Assembly: GCA_964355655.1 (NCBI GenBank)
Contig: CAYHDT010000002.1
Coordinates: 15,598 to 79,597 of the forward strand
Origin: an uncultured Candidatus Saccharibacteria bacterium
GTDB lineage: Bacteria; Patescibacteriota; Minisyncoccia; Phycocordibacterales; SBAW01
Reading direction: 5' to 3'
DNA length: 64,000 bases
A program made the translations under genes and the position numbers. Under the pieces are notes generated by a model that searched no databases, was not told the origin of the DNA, and worked only from the letters and a program-made list of their open reading frames with translations. The stretch's first letter is position 1. Each line of letters starts with the position of its first letter. Positions 9,968 to 40,276 of the stretch are shown here, in pieces.

Positions 9968-11326
9968 ATGTTCCTGCATGATACTGCGCACAGTGCAAAT
10001 GCCTGGATAGACGGTTGGCACGTAGAAACCATAGTGGTGGCGGGGACGGCCATGTTTGTTTTTGTACTGACTGCTCTCGTGGTCGACCCCGATGCAGTGC
10101 TGGCTGCCGGGAGCGCGCTTGTGGCTCTCTCGCCGTTGTGGTTGCCGGTAACTCTATTTGTTATATTTTGGAAGATATGGATGCATTACATCCGCTATGC
10201 GTACTGGTTTCGCCAGCCGATGACTCTGTTGCATATCGAGCTGCCGCCCGAAGTAGCCAAATCGCCGCTTGCGATGGAGCTTGTATTGGTAGGCCTGTGG
10301 AATAACGGCAGTGAAACAACATTCATCCAGCGCATATGGAAGGGACAATTCAGAGCCATTTCAACGCTGGAGTTGGTAAGCAATGAAGGCCGTATCGGCT
10401 ACTATATCCACCTGCGCAAAAATTGGAAGGAGTTTATAGAGGCCAGAATATACGGACAATTTCCCGAGGCAAAAATTACCGAGGTGACCCGCGACTATGT
10501 CGATGAGGTGCCGTACAATACGGAAGAGTACGACTTGTGGGGAACTGAGTACGCAAAGGAGAGCAGCCTCGCCGAGGCGCTGCCTATTCGCACGTACATC
10601 GACTACGGCCTCGACAAAAATACCGACACACCCGAGATACACGTCGACCCGATGACTAACATTTTGGAATTTCTTTCCACTATCAAGACAGACGAGTACT
10701 TGTGGATACAAATCGTGATGAAGGCGCGCAAAAAAGACGAGTGGTACGGTTTTTATACCGGCAACCACTGGCTGGACGACGCTAAGACGAATATTAAAAA
10801 AATTACCGAAGCGGCCATCGAGCGCGCGCGGGGACTGACCTCCGACGAGGCCGAGCAAAAAAAAGTAGGTTCTCGCGGCGCGATGCTCCTGACCGGCGGG
10901 GAGAAGCTGATGGTTGAGTCCATAGAGCGCTCGCTCACAAAACAGGTGTTCGACTGCGGCTTCCGCACGGTGTATATAGTTAAAAAAGGAAAATTCGACC
11001 TTAGCCGCGTCAACAACTTGGTGCGCTTGTGGGACCCGTTCCGCGGAGAGAATACCAACAAGCTTAGTGTAGCGAGAGGCAAGTCTATATTCGATTATCC
11101 GTGGCAGGACTGGGACGGCATCCGCGCGACCATGATAAGCAAGAAGATGTTCTTTTGGTACAAGCATCGCGCTTATTTCTACGTGCCGTATGACCAAAAA
11201 GAAGTGTGCATGACCACTGAAGAGCTGGCGAGCATTTGGCACTTCCCGAACTCCGAGGTTAAAACACCGGCGCTGCAGCGCGTACCCAGCCGCCGGGCGG
11301 CGGCTCCGTCGGGACTCCCTATTTAA
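9968..11326 (+). CDS. Hypothetical membrane-anchored protein (452 aa)
   Basis: N-terminal TM helices followed by a large soluble domain. The antisense ORF 10361-11347 is rejected because its Leu/Arg/Val-rich composition is typical of shadow ORFs. Confidence 0.5.
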   Translation: MFLHDTAHSANAWIDGWHVETIVVAGTAMFVFVLTALVVDPDAVLAAGSALVALSPLWLPVTLFVIFWKIWMHYIRYAYWFRQPMTLLHIELPPEVAKSPLAMELVLVGLWNNGSETTFIQRIWKGQFRAISTLELVSNEGRIGYYIHLRKNWKEFIEARIYGQFPEAKITEVTRDYVDEVPYNTEEYDLWGTEYAKESSLAEALPIRTYIDYGLDKNTDTPEIHVDPMTNILEFLSTIKTDEYLWIQIVMKARKKDEWYGFYTGNHWLDDAKTNIKKITEAAIERARGLTSDEAEQKKVGSRGAMLLTGGEKLMVESIERSLTKQVFDCGFRTVYIVKKGKFDLSRVNNLVRLWDPFRGENTNKLSVARGKSIFDYPWQDWDGIRATMISKKMFFWYKHRAYFYVPYDQKEVCMTTEELASIWHFPNSEVKTPALQRVPSRRAAAPSGLPI

Positions 11327-11327
11327 T

Positions 11328-11411
11328 ATGGTCCCGTTAGAGGCCACAAGTTTTTTATGATCAATAAAAATATTACTAGTATAATAGGGCGTCTGAGCCT
11401 CTAACGGGATG
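11328..11411 (+). repeat. Palindromic element copy 1 (ATG-g-TCCCGTTAGAGGC ... GCCTCTAACGGGA-TG), ending at the mltG start codon
   Basis: 13 bp perfect stem at 11332-11344 and 11397-11409, with a 52 nt AT-rich loop containing a TAGTATAAT box. The element is flanked by ATG on both sides. Confidence 0.7.
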
Positions 11412-12413
11412 GCTTGGCATCATACCCACCTTCCAACTTTTCATCGTGTGGCGGACTGGTACCGCAACCGCGACACCTTCGAGAAAGCGGCTATTAATCT
11501 TATCGCATGGGGAGGTATTTTGTGGATTTTATACGCGGCATTTTTGTCGGCTCCGTTCGGTTTTCCCAGCGGGGCGTACATAAACATAGAAGAGGGGATG
11601 GGGCTGCGGACTATTGCCGCGCGGTTCGAAGAGCGAGGCGTTGTCGGCAACGCCAAGCTTTTTGAGCTTATAACCCGCGTGCTCGGAGACGATAGGTATA
11701 TACCTGCGGGGCAATATTTCTTTTCCCGCAAAGACAATATGGTTTGGATAGCGATGCGGATATTGAGCGGCGATTTTGAGACGTCGCCGATACGCATCAC
11801 GATACCGGAAGGCTCTGCCATAAAGGATATTGTCAAAATTATGGTCAGAAAAGTGCCGGGATTCAGCCGCCAACAATTTGTCGAGCGTGCGCGGGAAGGG
11901 TATATGTTCCCCGACACTTATTTTTTCCGGCCCGGGCAATCTACCGAAGCGATATTGAGCGTGTTCGAAAACAATTTCCGCGTCAAATTGCTTAAAGTGC
12001 AAAAAGAAATTACCGCTTCGGACCACTCGCTCGATGAACTGCTGACAATGGCCTCGATTCTTGAAAAAGAGGCGTCTAAAACAAAAGACCGGCAGCTGAT
12101 AGCCGGGGTCCTGTGGCATCGCATCGACATCGGCATGCCGCTGCAAACAGACGCGACGTTCCCGTACTATCTTGGCCGCAATACGTTTGAAGTGACACTT
12201 GAAGACTTGCGTGCTGACCATCCGTACAATACCTATACCAATAAAGGCCTCCCTCCCGGTCCGATAGGGAACCCGGGGCTGGACTCTATACTGGCCGCCG
12301 CCACGCCCACGAAGACAAAATACGTCTTCTTTCTGTCCGACCGACAGGGAGTCTTCCACTACAGCGTGACATACGAAGGCCACCTGGCCAACAAAAGAAA
12401 ATATTTAGACTAA
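11409..12413 (+). CDS. mltG: Endolytic murein transglycosylase MltG (YceG family)
   Basis: N-terminal TM helix. YceG-like motifs LTMASILEKEASK and PYNTYTNKGLPPGPIGNPG. Confidence 0.85.
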   Translation: MAWHHTHLPTFHRVADWYRNRDTFEKAAINLIAWGGILWILYAAFLSAPFGFPSGAYINIEEGMGLRTIAARFEERGVVGNAKLFELITRVLGDDRYIPAGQYFFSRKDNMVWIAMRILSGDFETSPIRITIPEGSAIKDIVKIMVRKVPGFSRQQFVERAREGYMFPDTYFFRPGQSTEAILSVFENNFRVKLLKVQKEITASDHSLDELLTMASILEKEASKTKDRQLIAGVLWHRIDIGMPLQTDATFPYYLGRNTFEVTLEDLRADHPYNTYTNKGLPPGPIGNPGLDSILAAATPTKTKYVFFLSDRQGVFHYSVTYEGHLANKRKYLD

Positions 12414-12418
12414 TCTGT

Positions 12419-12703
12419 ATGCACTTAACTTCTCTGGAAATAATTCTTATCATCTCTACTGTGCTTGAATTTAACCCGCTATTTCAAGCGGTCAAAAGTA
12501 TTCGGACCAAAAAAGTTAATGATCTTTCGGTGTGGACATTCTTGTCTATTTTTGTAATTGGGGGACTATGGCTGTATTACGGCATCACTATTATGAGCGT
12601 TCCTCTTATTATCGGTAACACCATAAAACTTTTTACCGCATTAGTGGTTATTTTCATTTATTTTAAATACAGAAATAAAAATTTGGCTATAACTGTCAAA
12701 TAA
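12419..12703 (+). CDS. SemiSWEET-like PQ-loop small sugar transporter (3 TM, 94 aa)
   Basis: Architecture matches bacterial SemiSWEETs (NPLFQAVKSIRTKKVNDLS ... WLYYGI ... PLIIGNTIKLFTALVVIF). It sits in a locally AT-rich segment of about 40% GC. Confidence 0.55.
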   Translation: MHLTSLEIILIISTVLEFNPLFQAVKSIRTKKVNDLSVWTFLSIFVIGGLWLYYGITIMSVPLIIGNTIKLFTALVVIFIYFKYRNKNLAITVK

Positions 12704-12816
12704 AAAGATAATTTGGTTCCAACATATTCCCATACTGCCAGCTCGACATTTTAAATATTTTGTTGTAGTGTTTACTTTAGATTAAAAACGCTTCTTCGGG
12801 AGAAAAGGGGAGTTTA

Positions 12817-13104
12817 ATGGACGACAAATATTTATATCCTACGCCCGGGGGATTGTGGGCCATCAGACGCTGGGTTGAGGGCAAATGGATAACCCTTGTC
12901 CAAGATTCTTACATGGACGAGCCGGGGGCTATAGAGGCTATTATGCGCGTGCTGCGCATCCCGCACACTCAAGCGAGTCTTGATCGGTTTTTCCCTGTCC
13001 AAGCCGAGGCGGGCCGGTGTCCAACGTTGGAGCTCATGGAGCTCTGTAATGTGCTGGATCCGACCAACCCGCATATCAAGAACAGGAAGGAGTATGGAGT
13101 ATAG
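12817..13104 (+). CDS. Hypothetical protein (95 aa)
   Basis: ORF only. No motif recognised. Confidence 0.35.
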   Translation: MDDKYLYPTPGGLWAIRRWVEGKWITLVQDSYMDEPGAIEAIMRVLRIPHTQASLDRFFPVQAEAGRCPTLELMELCNVLDPTNPHIKNRKEYGV

Positions 13105-13167
13105 CGCACCAGCGGCCGTTAACGGCCGCTTTTTCTTTTGCAGCACACGGTATGGTATAACTTGCCC

Positions 13168-14379
13168 ATGTTTCTGGGGGATAAGAAAATATCACGCAAA
13201 CCTAAAGTGTTTGTAGGTTTAAGCGGCGGGGTGGACTCGGCTGTTTCAGCCGCTTTGCTGCAAAAAGAGGGCTACAATGTGACCGGCGTTTTTATACGCA
13301 TCGCAATCGACGGCTACCCGTGTACCGCCGGAGAAGACAAGCTTGACGCCATGCGTGTCGCGGCGCATTTAAAAATACCTTTTCGTACAATTGATTTGTC
13401 GGAAGAGTACAAAAAGAAAGTTTTTGATATTTCAATAAAAGAATTTGAGAAGGGGAGAACCCCAAACCCCGATGCGTTGTGTAACCGTGAAATAAAATTT
13501 GGCCTCTTCTTCGACTGGTGTATGGAGCAGGGCGCCGCCTTGGTCGCTACGGGGCATTATGCGCAAATTGCTCCAGCAAAATCTGTCCAGAAAAAGGTCC
13601 TCGGGTCTCCTGTCTCGGCCAAGACGGAAGAGGCCGGCAGGCCAGACCATTTTTCTAAACAGATTTTGCTTCTGGCTGGTGCAGATCCCGACAAGGACCA
13701 GTCTTACTTCTTGTGGGCCGTACCCGAAACAAAGCTGCGTAAAACGCTGTTTCCTGTCGGGAATTTAACTAAGCCGGAGGTGCGCAAACTGGCGACAGCG
13801 TTTGGTCTGCCGAATGCCGCTCGGAAAGACAGTCAGGGACTCTGTTTTCTTGGGCCTGTATCGATGGACGATATGCTCCGGCAGGAACTAGCACTTGTCC
13901 CCGGTGATGTGATTGATATGCAAGGCGCCCCCATAGGCCGGCACGAAGGCGCGGCCGCCTATACGCTCGGCCAGCGGCACGGGTTTGAGCTTAATGCTCA
14001 TACTCCCGATATTCGACCTCACTTTGTGGTGGCAAAAAATGTCGCGGCAAACACTATTACCGTGTCTACCGAGCGGTTTCCTCAATCTGCGACAGAAACA
14101 CAAATCGAGTTAAGCGATACTAATTGGATAGGGCCTTACTCCGCTGAAGCTACGGAGGGCAAAAAGCTTGCAGCAAGGTATCGTTATCGGCAAAAGCTTA
14201 TTCCGGCTGAGGTAGATTTTGACAAAAGCATCGTTACACTTTTTGAGCCGCACTTTGTGCCGGAAGGCCAGTCGCTTGTTTTGTACGACGGGCAGCGGTG
14301 TCTCGGCGGCGGTGTTATACTAACTGCCAAGTATGGCGATATTCATCGCGAAAGCGGACGGCACGCAAGAGCCGTATAA
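13168..14379 (+). CDS. mnmA: tRNA-specific 2-thiouridylase MnmA
   Basis: PP-loop VFVGLSGGVDSAVSA, catalytic CNREIKF region, and GLCFLG motif. Start chosen at MFLGDKK. Confidence 0.9.
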   Translation: MFLGDKKISRKPKVFVGLSGGVDSAVSAALLQKEGYNVTGVFIRIAIDGYPCTAGEDKLDAMRVAAHLKIPFRTIDLSEEYKKKVFDISIKEFEKGRTPNPDALCNREIKFGLFFDWCMEQGAALVATGHYAQIAPAKSVQKKVLGSPVSAKTEEAGRPDHFSKQILLLAGADPDKDQSYFLWAVPETKLRKTLFPVGNLTKPEVRKLATAFGLPNAARKDSQGLCFLGPVSMDDMLRQELALVPGDVIDMQGAPIGRHEGAAAYTLGQRHGFELNAHTPDIRPHFVVAKNVAANTITVSTERFPQSATETQIELSDTNWIGPYSAEATEGKKLAARYRYRQKLIPAEVDFDKSIVTLFEPHFVPEGQSLVLYDGQRCLGGGVILTAKYGDIHRESGRHARAV

Positions 14380-16414: not shown

Positions 16415-16502
16415 ATGAGTCCCGTTAGAAATTGTGGAAGTATTAACTGGCAGGATTCTTTATTAGTATTTGGAAGCAAAGCTTCCTATTTCTAACGGGA
16501 TG
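16415..16502 (+). repeat. Palindromic element copy 2 (ATG-ag-TCCCGTTAGAAAT ... ATTTCTAACGGGA-TG), ending at the start codon of the Cas4-like nuclease gene
   Basis: Arms at 16420-16432 and 16488-16500, with a 55 nt loop. The stem extension covaries relative to copies 1 and 3 (AAT/ATT versus GGC/GCC and GAT/ATC). Confidence 0.7.
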
Positions 16503-17354
16503 AGCCAGTACTACAAGCCGAACCGCCAGCCCGACTACAACTTCGGCGGTCCAAAGTGGCGCCTGTCGCGTTCTAAAATAGACCTCTTTTTAGAATGTCC
16601 GCAATGTTTTTATATCGATAATAAGCTCGGTGTCGCCCGCCCGCCCGGCTATCCGTTTAACCTCAACTCCGCGGTGGACGAATTGTTGAAAAAAGAATTT
16701 GATATCCATCGCGCCAACGGCACGCAGCACCCCTTGGCCAAAAGCTACGGCGTAGAGGCAGTCCCTTTTGACGATCCTAGGATGGACGAGTGGCGCGACG
16801 CTTTGCGGCGCGGGATACAGTGCGTGCACAAAGCGACCGGGCTTACGGTGCGCGGAGGTGTGGACGATGTGTGGGTAGACAAAGACGGCCAACTTATCAT
16901 TGTCGATTATAAAGCGACGAGCAAAAGCGGCAAAATAGAATCTCTTGACGAAGAGTGGCACCGCGGCTACAAGCGCCAGCTTGAAATATATCAATGGCTC
17001 TTTCGCCAGAACGGATTTAAAGTCTCCGACACCGGCTACTGGGTGTACGCCAACGCGAGCAAGGACCGCGCGGCTTTTGACGGCAAATTGGACTTCGAGG
17101 TGACGCTCGTCCCTTACATCGGAAATAGCGACTGGGTCGAGGGGGCGCTGATTAACTTGAAAGCGTGTCTAGACAGCGATAGTATTCCCGAAGCGCTGTC
17201 CGATTGCGACTACTGCCGTTACCGGGGAGCCGCAGGCAAAGCGCTGTTGGCGGCTAAAAGTAAAAATGCCCCGACGCGCGAAGCGGTCAGCGTCCCGGCC
17301 AAAGTGTCGGGGAAAAATAACGACCATGAAAAGAAAACAAATCAGCTTTTCTGA
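16500..17354 (+). CDS. PD-(D/E)XK nuclease, Cas4/RecB-like with putative Fe-S cysteines
   Basis: LIIVDYKATSK (D..YK motif), QLEIYQW (QxxxY), N-terminal CPQC and C-terminal CLDSDSIPEALSDCDYC. Start set at ATG 16500 (MSQYYK); the tracked ORF starts at an upstream TTG inside the repeat. Confidence 0.7.
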   Translation: MSQYYKPNRQPDYNFGGPKWRLSRSKIDLFLECPQCFYIDNKLGVARPPGYPFNLNSAVDELLKKEFDIHRANGTQHPLAKSYGVEAVPFDDPRMDEWRDALRRGIQCVHKATGLTVRGGVDDVWVDKDGQLIIVDYKATSKSGKIESLDEEWHRGYKRQLEIYQWLFRQNGFKVSDTGYWVYANASKDRAAFDGKLDFEVTLVPYIGNSDWVEGALINLKACLDSDSIPEALSDCDYCRYRGAAGKALLAAKSKNAPTREAVSVPAKVSGKNNDHEKKTNQLF

Positions 17355-40074: not shown

Positions 40075-40165
40075 ATGAATCCCGTTAGAGATGACGACGT
40101 TAAAAATATGACCATTAGCAAAATAACTACGGAAATGCTTTGCATTTCCTATCTCTAACGGGATG
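40075..40165 (+). repeat. Palindromic element copy 3 (ATG-aa-TCCCGTTAGAGAT ... ATCTCTAACGGGA-TG) between infA and rpmJ, ending at the rpmJ start codon
   Basis: Arms at 40080-40092 and 40151-40163, with a 58 nt AT-rich loop. Confidence 0.7.
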
Positions 40166-40276
40166 AAAGTAAAAGCTTCGATAAAACCCCGGTGCGCTAA
40201 CTGCAAAATGGTCCGCCGCAAGGGGCGGATTTATGTAGTGTGCATCAACCCGCGCCATAAGCAGCGTCAAGGATAA
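40163..40276 (+). CDS. rpmJ: 50S ribosomal protein L36
   Basis: [37 protein letters not shown] (37 aa, zinc-ribbon Cys/His). Too short for the ORF track. Confidence 0.85.

Follow-up and report, generated by a model that had tools for sequence, protein, structure and literature searches.

Three hairpins inside start codons

The window, meaning the whole 64-kb stretch of DNA analyzed here, comes from an uncultured Candidatus Saccharibacteria bacterium (contig CAYHDT010000002.1 of assembly GCA_964355655.1, positions 15,598 to 79,597) and carries three copies of a short palindromic element. The copies are perfect inverted repeats of 13-14 bp, TCCCGTTAGAnnn / nnnTCTAACGGGA, every one adjoining a gene start. 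Comparison with related genomes identifies these hairpins as MITEs (miniature inverted-repeat transposable elements), that is, non-autonomous deletion derivatives of a very small mobile element. A first-pass annotation of the window had reported three such palindromes, each held between two ATGs, the second of which opens a real gene. Both statements hold: the arms and coordinates are as described, and the genes opened are those for MltG/YceG, a PD-(D/E)XK protein, and ribosomal protein L36. By the names that its closest MltG homologues bear, the bacterium is a Kaiserbacteria-like member of the Parcubacteria. The arm 10-mer has six exact occurrences in the window, solely as the three pairs. 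With up to one mismatch allowed there are nine matches, compared to 3.1 +/- 1.7 in shuffled sequence (0 of 100 shuffles reach nine).

The three copies, their duplications, and the ORFs that go with them all lie on the forward (+) strand. Copy 1 (11332-11409, 78 bp) has the 13-bp arms TCCCGTTAGAGGC / GCCTCTAACGGGA and lies inside the MltG/YceG start codon. The first ATG (ATG1, 11328-11330) overlaps a TGG at 11329-11331 that is repeated on the right at 11410-11412, and the rebuilt second ATG (ATG2, 11409-11411) is made of the element's last A and the TG that follows. ATG2 opens the MltG/YceG open reading frame (ORF) at 11409-12413, while the short frame that begins at ATG1 (ORF1, 11328-11360) encodes MVPLEATSFL and stops within the loop.

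Copy 2 (16420-16500, 81 bp) has the arms TCCCGTTAGAAAT / ATTTCTAACGGGA, which end in AAT and begin in ATT, and occupies the start codon of a gene of the PD-(D/E)XK nuclease family. The promoter of this host gene is of the leaderless type, with TAAAAT, 8 nt, and then ATG1 (16415-16417). Its ORF1 (16415-16495) runs through the left TGAG (16416-16419) and the whole loop to a TAA in the right arm (16493-16495), 4 nt before ATG2, and its 26 codons give the peptide MSPVRNCGSINWQDSLLVFGSKASYF. The host gene (16500-17354) is restarted at ATG2 (16500-16502), which overlaps the right TGAG (16501-16504).

Copy 3 (40080-40163, 84 bp) lies at the junction of infA and rpmJ, with the arms (A)TCCCGTTAGAGAT / ATCTCTAACGGGA(T), in which the variable bases are GAT and ATC. 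ATG1 (40075-40077) directly follows the infA stops TAG TAA. From it, past the left TGAA (40076-40079), a complete ORF1 of 27 codons (40075-40158) reaches a TAA in the right arm (40156-40158), and its N-terminus, MNPVRD, is identical to that of the 94-aa nuclease forms discussed below. The gene for ribosomal protein L36, rpmJ (40163-40276), is restarted at ATG2 (40163-40165), overlapped by the right TGAA (40164-40167). The ATG pairs that bracket the three copies begin at 11328/11409, 16415/16500, and 40075/40163. Folded as RNA, the copies are more stable than shuffled sequence (z = -2.8, -3.9, and -6.4).

Target duplications, empty sites, and movement

In the arrangement just described, the first ATG is the original start codon, and its TG, together with the next two bases, is duplicated; the second ATG consists of the terminal A of the element and the duplicated TG. 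Because the element ends in A, the downstream duplicate again reads ATG, so the host ORF is left intact. The duplications in the window are TGG for copy 1, TGAG for copy 2, and TGAA for copy 3. Copies from the matches listed in a scan of one genome per species, 132 in all, were lined up outside their arms. A direct repeat immediately flanks the arms in most of them: 4 bp in 87, 3 bp in 12, 2 bp in 16, 1 bp in one, and none in the remaining 16. The commonest target site duplications (TSDs) are TGAA/TTCA (41 copies), TGGA/TCCA (11), TTGA (10), TGAG/CTCA (8), and TAAA/TTTA (7).

The unoccupied form of the site was found for all three copies, as the comparison of orthologous loci proposed in the first-pass annotation had called for. 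The copy 1 site is empty in a related strain (L120), whose MltG is 98% identical and which reads ..ctatttaatATGGcttggcat.., equal to the window minus 78 bp and one TGG; five more relatives are also empty here. The copy 2 site is empty in L132 (..taaaatggtctggcATGAGCCAG..) and is occupied by other forms elsewhere. L131 has an 81-nt copy with an unrelated interior, and three relatives (L123 at 10181-10209, L124, and L133) have a 29-nt mini hairpin, TCCCGTTAGAAGC-GGG-GCTTCTAACGGGA, that is, a 13-bp stem with a GGG loop, flanked by the same TGAG duplication. The mini form means that the arms alone can persist after near-total loss of the interior. For copy 3, the empty site ttgTAAtcGTGAAAGTAAAAGC is found in L160 and L161, whose IF-1 protein is identical; there, rpmJ starts with GTG, and in the window the last base of the element has turned this start into ATG. 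The occupied or empty state of these sites is polymorphic between closely related strains of the Candidate Phyla Radiation (CPR). In addition, locus L108 carries two identical 63-bp copies at different genes, demonstrating recent movement within a genome. The gene caller began the MltG of the related strain L120 (L120 2067, P0001) 13 codons past the true ATG, giving 321 rather than 334 aa.

The first-pass annotation had offered, as one of two explanations, a MITE that inserts at ATG with a 3-bp duplication. In essence this proposal is borne out by the TSDs, the three empty sites, the identical copies at different genes, and the hundreds of copies across phyla. It differs in detail: the duplicated sequence is not ATG but a 4-bp TGNN, or more generally TNNA, with the 3-bp TGG of copy 1 as a variant, and the element ends with the A of the second ATG. 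The copies are short and lack a transposase gene, they have terminal inverted repeats (TIRs), TSDs, and empty sites, and a related autonomous element has the same ends. As far as sequence can tell, then, they have every property of MITEs, in a niche and with a parent that appear to be unprecedented. The family ranges in size from 29 bp to about 170 bp in compound forms.

Pairing of the arms

Stem covariation, noted at first from the three window copies, is borne out in 85 non-redundant copies oriented by gene. Positions 11, 12, and 13 of the arms are Watson-Crick paired in 80, 83, and 73 of the 85, respectively, with A-T, G-C, T-A, and C-G pairs all present, and position 14 is paired in 23, which is chance. 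Since pairing stops after position 13, the functional repeat is 13 bp long, with 10 fixed positions (TCCCGTTAGA) and three that are free but complementary. The first mismatch in the stem is G·T in 16 copies and A·C in 23. The lack of an RNA-type wobble excess points to pairing at the DNA level, either as a hairpin or cruciform or through the copying of one arm from the other. Selection of the stem as an RNA helix is not supported by these mismatch counts. Searches with Rfam covariance models found nothing at the gathering threshold across the window, and permissive thresholds on copy 3 gave only chance-level matches (E > 1). The absence of Rfam matches extends to tRNA, riboswitch, and leader families, despite a ribosomal-protein operon in the window.

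A variant arm family, CCCCGTTAGA...TCTAACGGGG, has C-G instead of T-A as its outermost pair (L030 5908, L048 7077, L080 6834, L102 3985, and L123 4559), which is why GTG, not ATG, stands at its right junction.

Distribution and placement

The species scan used the pattern TCCCGTTAGA-N44-74-TCTAACGGGA, which carries out the search of related CPR genomes for the arm pair that had been suggested. The arms occur in at least 119 species-level genomes. Nearly all of the matches listed are Patescibacteria, among them Saccharibacteria, Nomura-, Kerfeld-, Yanofsky-, Levyi-, Doudna-, and Kaiserbacteria, with a few in Omnitrophota, Planctomycetota, WOR-3, and others. Five viral contigs from IMG/VR (L126-L130) also carry copies, at least two of them at gene starts, with GGAGG just inside the right arm (L128 and L129).

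Start codons are the main niche of the family. In 87 of the 132 copies (about 66%), the terminal A plus TG opens an ORF of at least 60 aa. Among the 57 start-associated copies with an exact TSD, the base preceding the duplication is A in 53, G in three, and T in one, as expected from insertions at ATG, GTG, and TTG starts. Of the 57, 26 have a -10-like box 4-9 nt ahead of ATG1, compared to 7.3 +/- 2.4 in shuffled sequence, with a peak at 6-7 nt, and a Shine-Dalgarno-like sequence is present at only six of the targets. The frequent -10-like box and the few Shine-Dalgarno sequences mark the targets as typically leaderless, with insertion at position +2 of the transcript.

The link to start codons proposed in the first-pass annotation holds for the majority of copies. 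Others have inserted into -35 boxes, at the stop codons of genes, or within genes without loss of frame. The non-start copies prefer TNNA too (24 of 30), in a palindromic context resembling A|TNNA|T. The TTGA class includes clean insertions into -35 boxes, with TTGAC(A/T/G), 17 nt, and a -10-like hexamer (L020, L064, L065, L012, L017, and L085), and in-frame copies within long ORFs are seen, for example, in L003, L021, L049, L048, and L112. The window has 1558 A|TNNA sites, including 17 that coincide with called ATG starts and 201 that lie wholly or partly between genes. Even if all intragenic insertions were lost, the null expectation for start codons would be about 8% (7.8%), against 57 of 87 seen (p ~1e-41, an optimistic value). 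The excess could come from targeting or from stronger selection, and the sequences are compatible with either.

Some elements are compound, about 150-170 nt long, with one copy nested in another (L018 3211-3381, L115 412-581, L079 7140-7295, and L015 4620-4789); in L018 and L115, the outer copy has a small subterminal hairpin whose loop holds the inner copy. "ACYTG" left flanks, considered as a second type of target, turned out to belong to the inner members of nested or compound elements, whose outer left arm lies about 90 nt upstream at ATGAA.

Interior of the hairpins

The loops had been described as AT-rich and unrelated, but they are not featureless. Relative to the downstream gene, CGGGA occurs in the loops 27 times in the sense direction and twice in the antisense, and GGAG 23 times and once, respectively. 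Most GGAG motifs stand 5-11 nt ahead of the loop's 3' end, and thus 9-13 nt before ATG2. TATAAT has no such strand bias (9 sense, 7 antisense), so the promoter-like box seen in the loop of copy 1 (TAGTATAAT), to which the first-pass annotation drew attention, is not a feature of the family.

The frame that begins at ATG1 (ATG NNT CCC GTT AGA ...) is free of stops in 34 of 57 loops. By comparison, the other two sense frames are open in 13 and 10, and shuffled loops give 12.7 +/- 2.9, with 0 of 2000 shuffles reaching 34. An open frame is frequent in antisense frame 0, too (24 of 57). ORF1 ends at the TAA of the right arm (TC TAA CGG G ATG), 4 nt before ATG2, in 30 of 57 copies (p = 0.002). The remaining outcomes are an in-frame fusion (..S-N-G-M..) or a TGA that overlaps ATG2, and the three outcomes follow from biased element lengths. 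In copy 1, the 3-bp TSD puts ORF1 in a different frame, and it stops inside the loop. Non-start copies favor a length plus TSD that is divisible by three (25 of 45), in contrast to the start-associated ones (chi-square p = 0.0013). The peptide encoded by the interior is unconserved except for the part that the arms encode. An open frame with a TAA 4 nt before the host ATG suggests translational coupling between the MITE and its host gene. Programmed ribosome hopping of the T4 gene 60 type was also considered and is unnecessary, as ATG2 is a normal start and ORF1 is open.

An autonomous parent

The first trace of a coding parent is in L049 (5361), where a long "unpaired" arm stands 8 nt ahead of 44 codons for the N-terminal part of a GIY-YIG protein, in a segment that ends in ..AACGGGATG. 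A metagenome search with this ORF as the query led to L136, which has a complete unit at a start codon: ATGAA, then TCaCGTTAGAgatgatt and an ATG that opens 86 codons ending in ctg tct cta acg gga, and then TGA A. In L136, the GIY-YIG unit is followed by a tandem MITE and then by the host gene. The same arms, duplications, and GIY-YIG ORF are found at three further host genes in DNA of three more families (L141, L149, and L155), where the next gene overlaps by 4 nt (ATGA). The full element is 276-290 bp long and consists of 13-bp perfect inverted repeats around a single GIY-YIG ORF of 86-95 aa.

The arms and the gene are built into each other. The right arm (xCT CTA ACG GGA) encodes the C-terminus of the nuclease (..LSLTG), and the stop codon is the TGA of the duplication, which overlaps the rebuilt host ATG (ATGA). 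A search for homologues of the nuclease gave 2975 clusters, and the termini were read in the best 120. Of these 120, 112 end exactly in L-x-L-T-G, and 118 have LxLTG at or near the C-terminus. At the other end, 36 (about 30%) start with M-x-P-V-R, which is the host ATG and the left arm read in frame (MNPVR..), and three start with M-I-P-L-E, the register expected of a 3-bp TSD.

Copy 1 of the window and the autonomous element in L155 have the same 13-mer arms, and copy 3 shares its 13-mer arms, together with TTCCT, with the element in L149. The right subterminal sequence of copy 2, GCTTCCTAT, matches the 3' end of the nuclease ORF, whose last codons are matched by the (GC)TTCCTAT found subterminally in copies 2 and 3. 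L049/L134 and L135 are deletion derivatives of the GIY-YIG unit and represent intermediate steps in its reduction to MITEs. Across about 1.2 Mb of loci, the GIY-YIG ORF is the sole coding unit enclosed by the arms. No transposase-sized unit lies between arms in these loci, only pairs of separate MITEs at neighboring gene starts. Related GIY-YIG genes without arms are present in these genomes as well (L039, L137, L139, and L140). A search of viral contigs for the arm plus GIY-YIG start pattern returned one chance match, which is not a GIY-YIG gene.

The L136 locus is crowded, with four arm-bounded elements in 900 bp (819-1713): one just upstream of a tRNA gene (TSD CGAG), one at the start of rpmG (L33; TSD TATG), the GIY-YIG element, and the tandem MITE. 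The host gene that follows starts with ATGAATCCCATTATT (MNPII), a sequence similar to ATGAA and a left arm that has decayed, which hints that N-terminal coding sequence can arise from old arms.

The nuclease

The parent protein matches the Pfam GIY-YIG family PF01541 with E = 1.2e-16 and 61 bits (cut-off 22.6), and no NCBIfam family model matches it. The nearest sequences of solved structure are the UPF0213 proteins BH0048 (1zg2, E = 1e-9) and EF2693. In 36 diverse members, Y5, W15, Y16, G18, R24, H30, E50, and a C-terminal R-F-L-x-L-T-G are invariant, so that the catalytic Tyr of GIY (Y5), the Tyr and Gly of YIG (Y16 and G18), the Arg (R24), and the Glu (E50) are all conserved. A confident AlphaFold model (predicted local distance difference test, or pLDDT, of 89.8) has as its best PDB matches UPF0213 1zg2, At-HIGLE 7wme, and Slx1 7cq2, ahead of I-TevI and UvrC. 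By sequence match and predicted fold, the nuclease is assigned to the SLX1/UPF0213 branch of the GIY-YIG superfamily. The enzymes of this branch are structure-specific nucleases that cut junctions, flaps, and stem-loops. By analogy, such an enzyme would fit the need for a 13-bp complementary stem.

How the element might move and be tolerated

The anatomy of the element, its duplications and polymorphism, the coding parent, the arm-built ends of its ORF, the ATGA overlap, and the open frame of the MITEs can be read directly in the DNA. The reading that best joins them, and which we consider probable, is that the hairpins are MITEs of a small element of Patescibacteria/CPR whose GIY-YIG parent sits at start codons, borrows host signals, and supplies the nuclease as mobility enzyme. 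Insertion duplicates 4 bp, with a preference for TNNA, and in two thirds of the copies the duplicated bases start with the T of a start codon (A|TGNN). The nuclease would be transcribed, and in its MNPVR forms also translated, from the start signals of the host. Ribosomes that reach the stop, which is the TGA in the parent and the arm TAA in the MITEs, would reinitiate at the rebuilt ATG 0-4 nt away. Such reinitiation would keep the host gene expressed and would be essential for leaderless genes, which have no other ribosome-binding signal. The MITEs would retain this hand-back through a stop-free ATG1 frame that mostly ends at the right-arm TAA. The nuclease itself would act on the DNA hairpin or cruciform formed by the 13-bp arms to move the element.

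A broader claim can be made, in which we have about as much confidence as doubt. It holds that the arms together with the 86-aa GIY-YIG gene are an autonomous transposable element of a class new to prokaryotes, at about 280 bp the smallest known. This hairpin-forming DNA would be moved by a structure-specific GIY-YIG nuclease in place of a DDE, HUH, serine, or tyrosine enzyme, and would be adapted to, or would target, the first codon of (leaderless) genes. The element would be expressed from host start signals, the host gene would be restored by ATGA or TAA-N4-ATG termination-reinitiation, and the window hairpins would be its MITE progeny.

Several points weigh against the main reading. No GIY-YIG enzyme is known to carry out transposition or to make 4-nt 5' staggered cuts, and the known ones nick or leave 1-2-nt 3' overhangs. 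TIRs with a TSD are the classic signature of a DDE transposase, so an unseen transposase acting in trans is possible. The nuclease ORFs of 86-88 aa lack a Shine-Dalgarno sequence and lie in another frame than the host ATG1, which means that the borrowing of the start codon is literal for only about 30% of copies. No autonomous copy is present in the window, nor in about 1 Mb around the MITEs, save one truncated copy. Among the MITEs, 23 of 57, including copy 1 of the window, have a stop inside the loop, so coupling is not the sole route to expression of the host gene. The census covers exact 10-mer arms and a limited range of loop lengths, and the p-values are optimistic because the copies are phylogenetically non-independent.

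The most serious competitor, although we think it improbable, is an ordinary MITE moved by a DDE transposase, perhaps of the IS1380/piggyBac kind, with the GIY-YIG ORF as a passenger or second parasite inside the arms. Elements of that kind make 4-bp TTAA-type duplications and have CCC...GGG ends. The TIRs and the 4-bp TNNA duplication seen here do resemble DDE chemistry, the ends (T)CCC...GGG(A) seem similar to those of piggyBac and IS1380, and GIY-YIG enzymes are not known as DNA transposers. Against this, the roughly 1.2 Mb of loci contain no arm-bounded unit of transposase size; the only coding unit that the arms enclose there is the GIY-YIG ORF, and the arms supply its N- and C-termini in 118 of the 120 best homologues. 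A protein that binds the two ends separately would also not need positions 11-13 of both arms to match.

Homing is less probable still. A free-standing homing endonuclease would cut unoccupied alleles, and the element would be copied by way of homologous flanks, with new sites being rare and illegitimate. GIY-YIG is a classic homing-endonuclease fold, CPR bacteria are generally regarded as ready to take up DNA, and at the start codon of the PD-(D/E)XK gene related lineages carry different forms, with the site of another lineage unoccupied. Yet homing makes no target duplications, and these flank most copies; the insertion sites number in the hundreds, are unrelated, and have only A|TNNA in common; a protein of 86 aa is too small to hold the long-site DNA-binding domains of I-TevI-type enzymes; and non-coding copies lie at different genes within one contig (L108). 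The plain form of this idea, a free-standing homing endonuclease gene, was rejected on the TSDs, the TIRs, and the many unrelated sites, which contradict a single cognate site without duplication. Least credible of all is the other explanation of the first-pass annotation, a conserved structured leader or cruciform that masks start codons. Here the host would have selected the arms as an RNA leader or DNA cruciform controlling initiation, with their spread secondary. The hairpins are stable, with AUG2 at the foot of the stem; at the orthologous copy 2 site, the arms are strictly conserved while the interior changes; and some copies have a Shine-Dalgarno-like GGAGG 9-13 nt before ATG2. As a primary explanation, it is largely refuted by sites that differ in presence among close relatives, host genes that are unrelated to each other, copies in frame inside ORFs and in -35 boxes, a stem without G·U excess, the lack of an Rfam match, and the existence of a parent that codes for a nuclease.

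Relation to known elements

The parent fits neither a DDE insertion sequence, nor the REPIN/RAYT system, nor a classical homing endonuclease gene, as each fails a defining feature, and its enzyme class is unconventional for the parent of a MITE. The REPIN/RAYT system is similar in that short, palindromic, non-coding hairpins are present in many copies, a single small nuclease gene is flanked by the same repeats, and the DNA hairpin apparently matters. However, RAYTs are HUH/Y1 enzymes and not GIY-YIG nucleases, and the REPs lie outside genes, begin with a GTAG or CGTC head, and lack a TSD, whereas the present arms start with TCCCG, are flanked by a 4-bp TSD, and are placed at start codons. The IS200/IS605 elements and PATEs are likewise very small, with ends that are DNA hairpins and with non-autonomous palindromic derivatives. 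They differ in having an HUH Y1 transposase, no inverted terminal repeats spanning the element, no TSD, and insertion 3' of a fixed tetra- or pentanucleotide. The piggyBac/IS1380 elements share the 4-bp T..A-type duplication and, it seems, the CCC...GGG ends, but no DDE transposase was found in the loci searched. Integron attC sites were considered in view of RYYYAAC/GTTRRRY-like cores and rejected, since the polarity of both cores is reversed and TSDs are present.

On the side of the nuclease, the Seg genes of T4-like phages are also selfish GIY-YIG genes that lie between host genes and are expressed from host signals. They are wedged between their neighbors and are sometimes translationally coupled to them. 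Unlike the present element, they lack TIRs, a TSD, and MITE progeny, and their proteins are much larger, with DNA-binding domains, compared to 86 aa of an SLX1/UPF0213-like kind. The UPF0213/YhbQ/SLX1 proteins are alike in sequence (1zg2, as above), in fold (At-HIGLE and Slx1), and in the catalytic Tyr/Tyr/Gly/Arg/Glu, but they count as housekeeping proteins or as proteins without a known function, and no inverted repeats have been described around them. The Rickettsia palindromic elements (RPEs) are set beside the present family by behavior only. They, too, are small, palindromic, and mobile and spare reading frames, as a subset does here (L003, L021, and L049), and their persistence is ORF-compatible, as summarized in PMC10969869. 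In contrast, RPEs occur in Rickettsia only, are about 100-150 bp long, and code for a conserved peptide, and a coding parent is not known for them, while the main niche here is the start codon, the interior peptide is unconserved, and the parent codes for a nuclease.

The first-pass annotation knew of no described element of this kind, and the Rfam and literature searches agree. Full-text searches, which included a 2024 review of prokaryotic MITEs and a 2006 survey of the GIY-YIG superfamily and whose coverage leaves out most subscription journals, returned no arm-bounded GIY-YIG element and no start-codon MITE of CPR bacteria. Literature queries with the arm sequences, with GIY-YIG together with TIRs or transposons, and with the peptide RFLSLTG returned nothing relevant.

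If the GIY-YIG protein moves these elements, it would be a sixth enzymatic route to DNA transposition in prokaryotes and would define a mobile element that is autonomous at only about 280 bp. It would also give a concrete role to part of the small UPF0213/YhbQ/SLX1-like nucleases, whose genes are among the commonest "hypothetical" or misnamed ("excinuclease ABC subunit C") genes of CPR bacteria. Whatever the enzyme, the arrangement is an unusual one, a parasite that lies inside a start codon and rebuilds the codon with its own last base, so that ribosomes would be able to pass to the host ORF. One could consider such an architecture the DNA-level counterpart of an intron or intein, an insertion rendered harmless by design. 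There are practical consequences as well. Gene callers misplace the starts of genes that bear copies, and the copies generate short upstream ORFs (MNPVR...) and occasional N-terminal extensions. They could be used as polymorphic markers among close CPR strains, and for bacteria that are otherwise difficult to study, the system is a natural setting in which leaderless initiation and reinitiation could be tested.

Other features of the window

Between copies 1 and 2, the window differs from the related strain L120 in two further places. About 790 bp of the interval between the MltG and MnmA genes (12414-13203) are missing from L120; the small ORFs of this segment are 12419-12703 (94 aa, membrane-like) and 12817-13104 (95 aa). 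Within the MnmA-like ORF (13138-14379), there is an unrelated palindrome at 13575-13670, with 21-nt arms AGCAAAATCTGTCCAGAAAAA / TTTTTCTAAACAGATTTTGCT that are 90% complementary and a 54-nt spacer. The window is longer than L120 by about 65 nt at this point, and the palindrome may be a second, different in-frame palindromic insertion.

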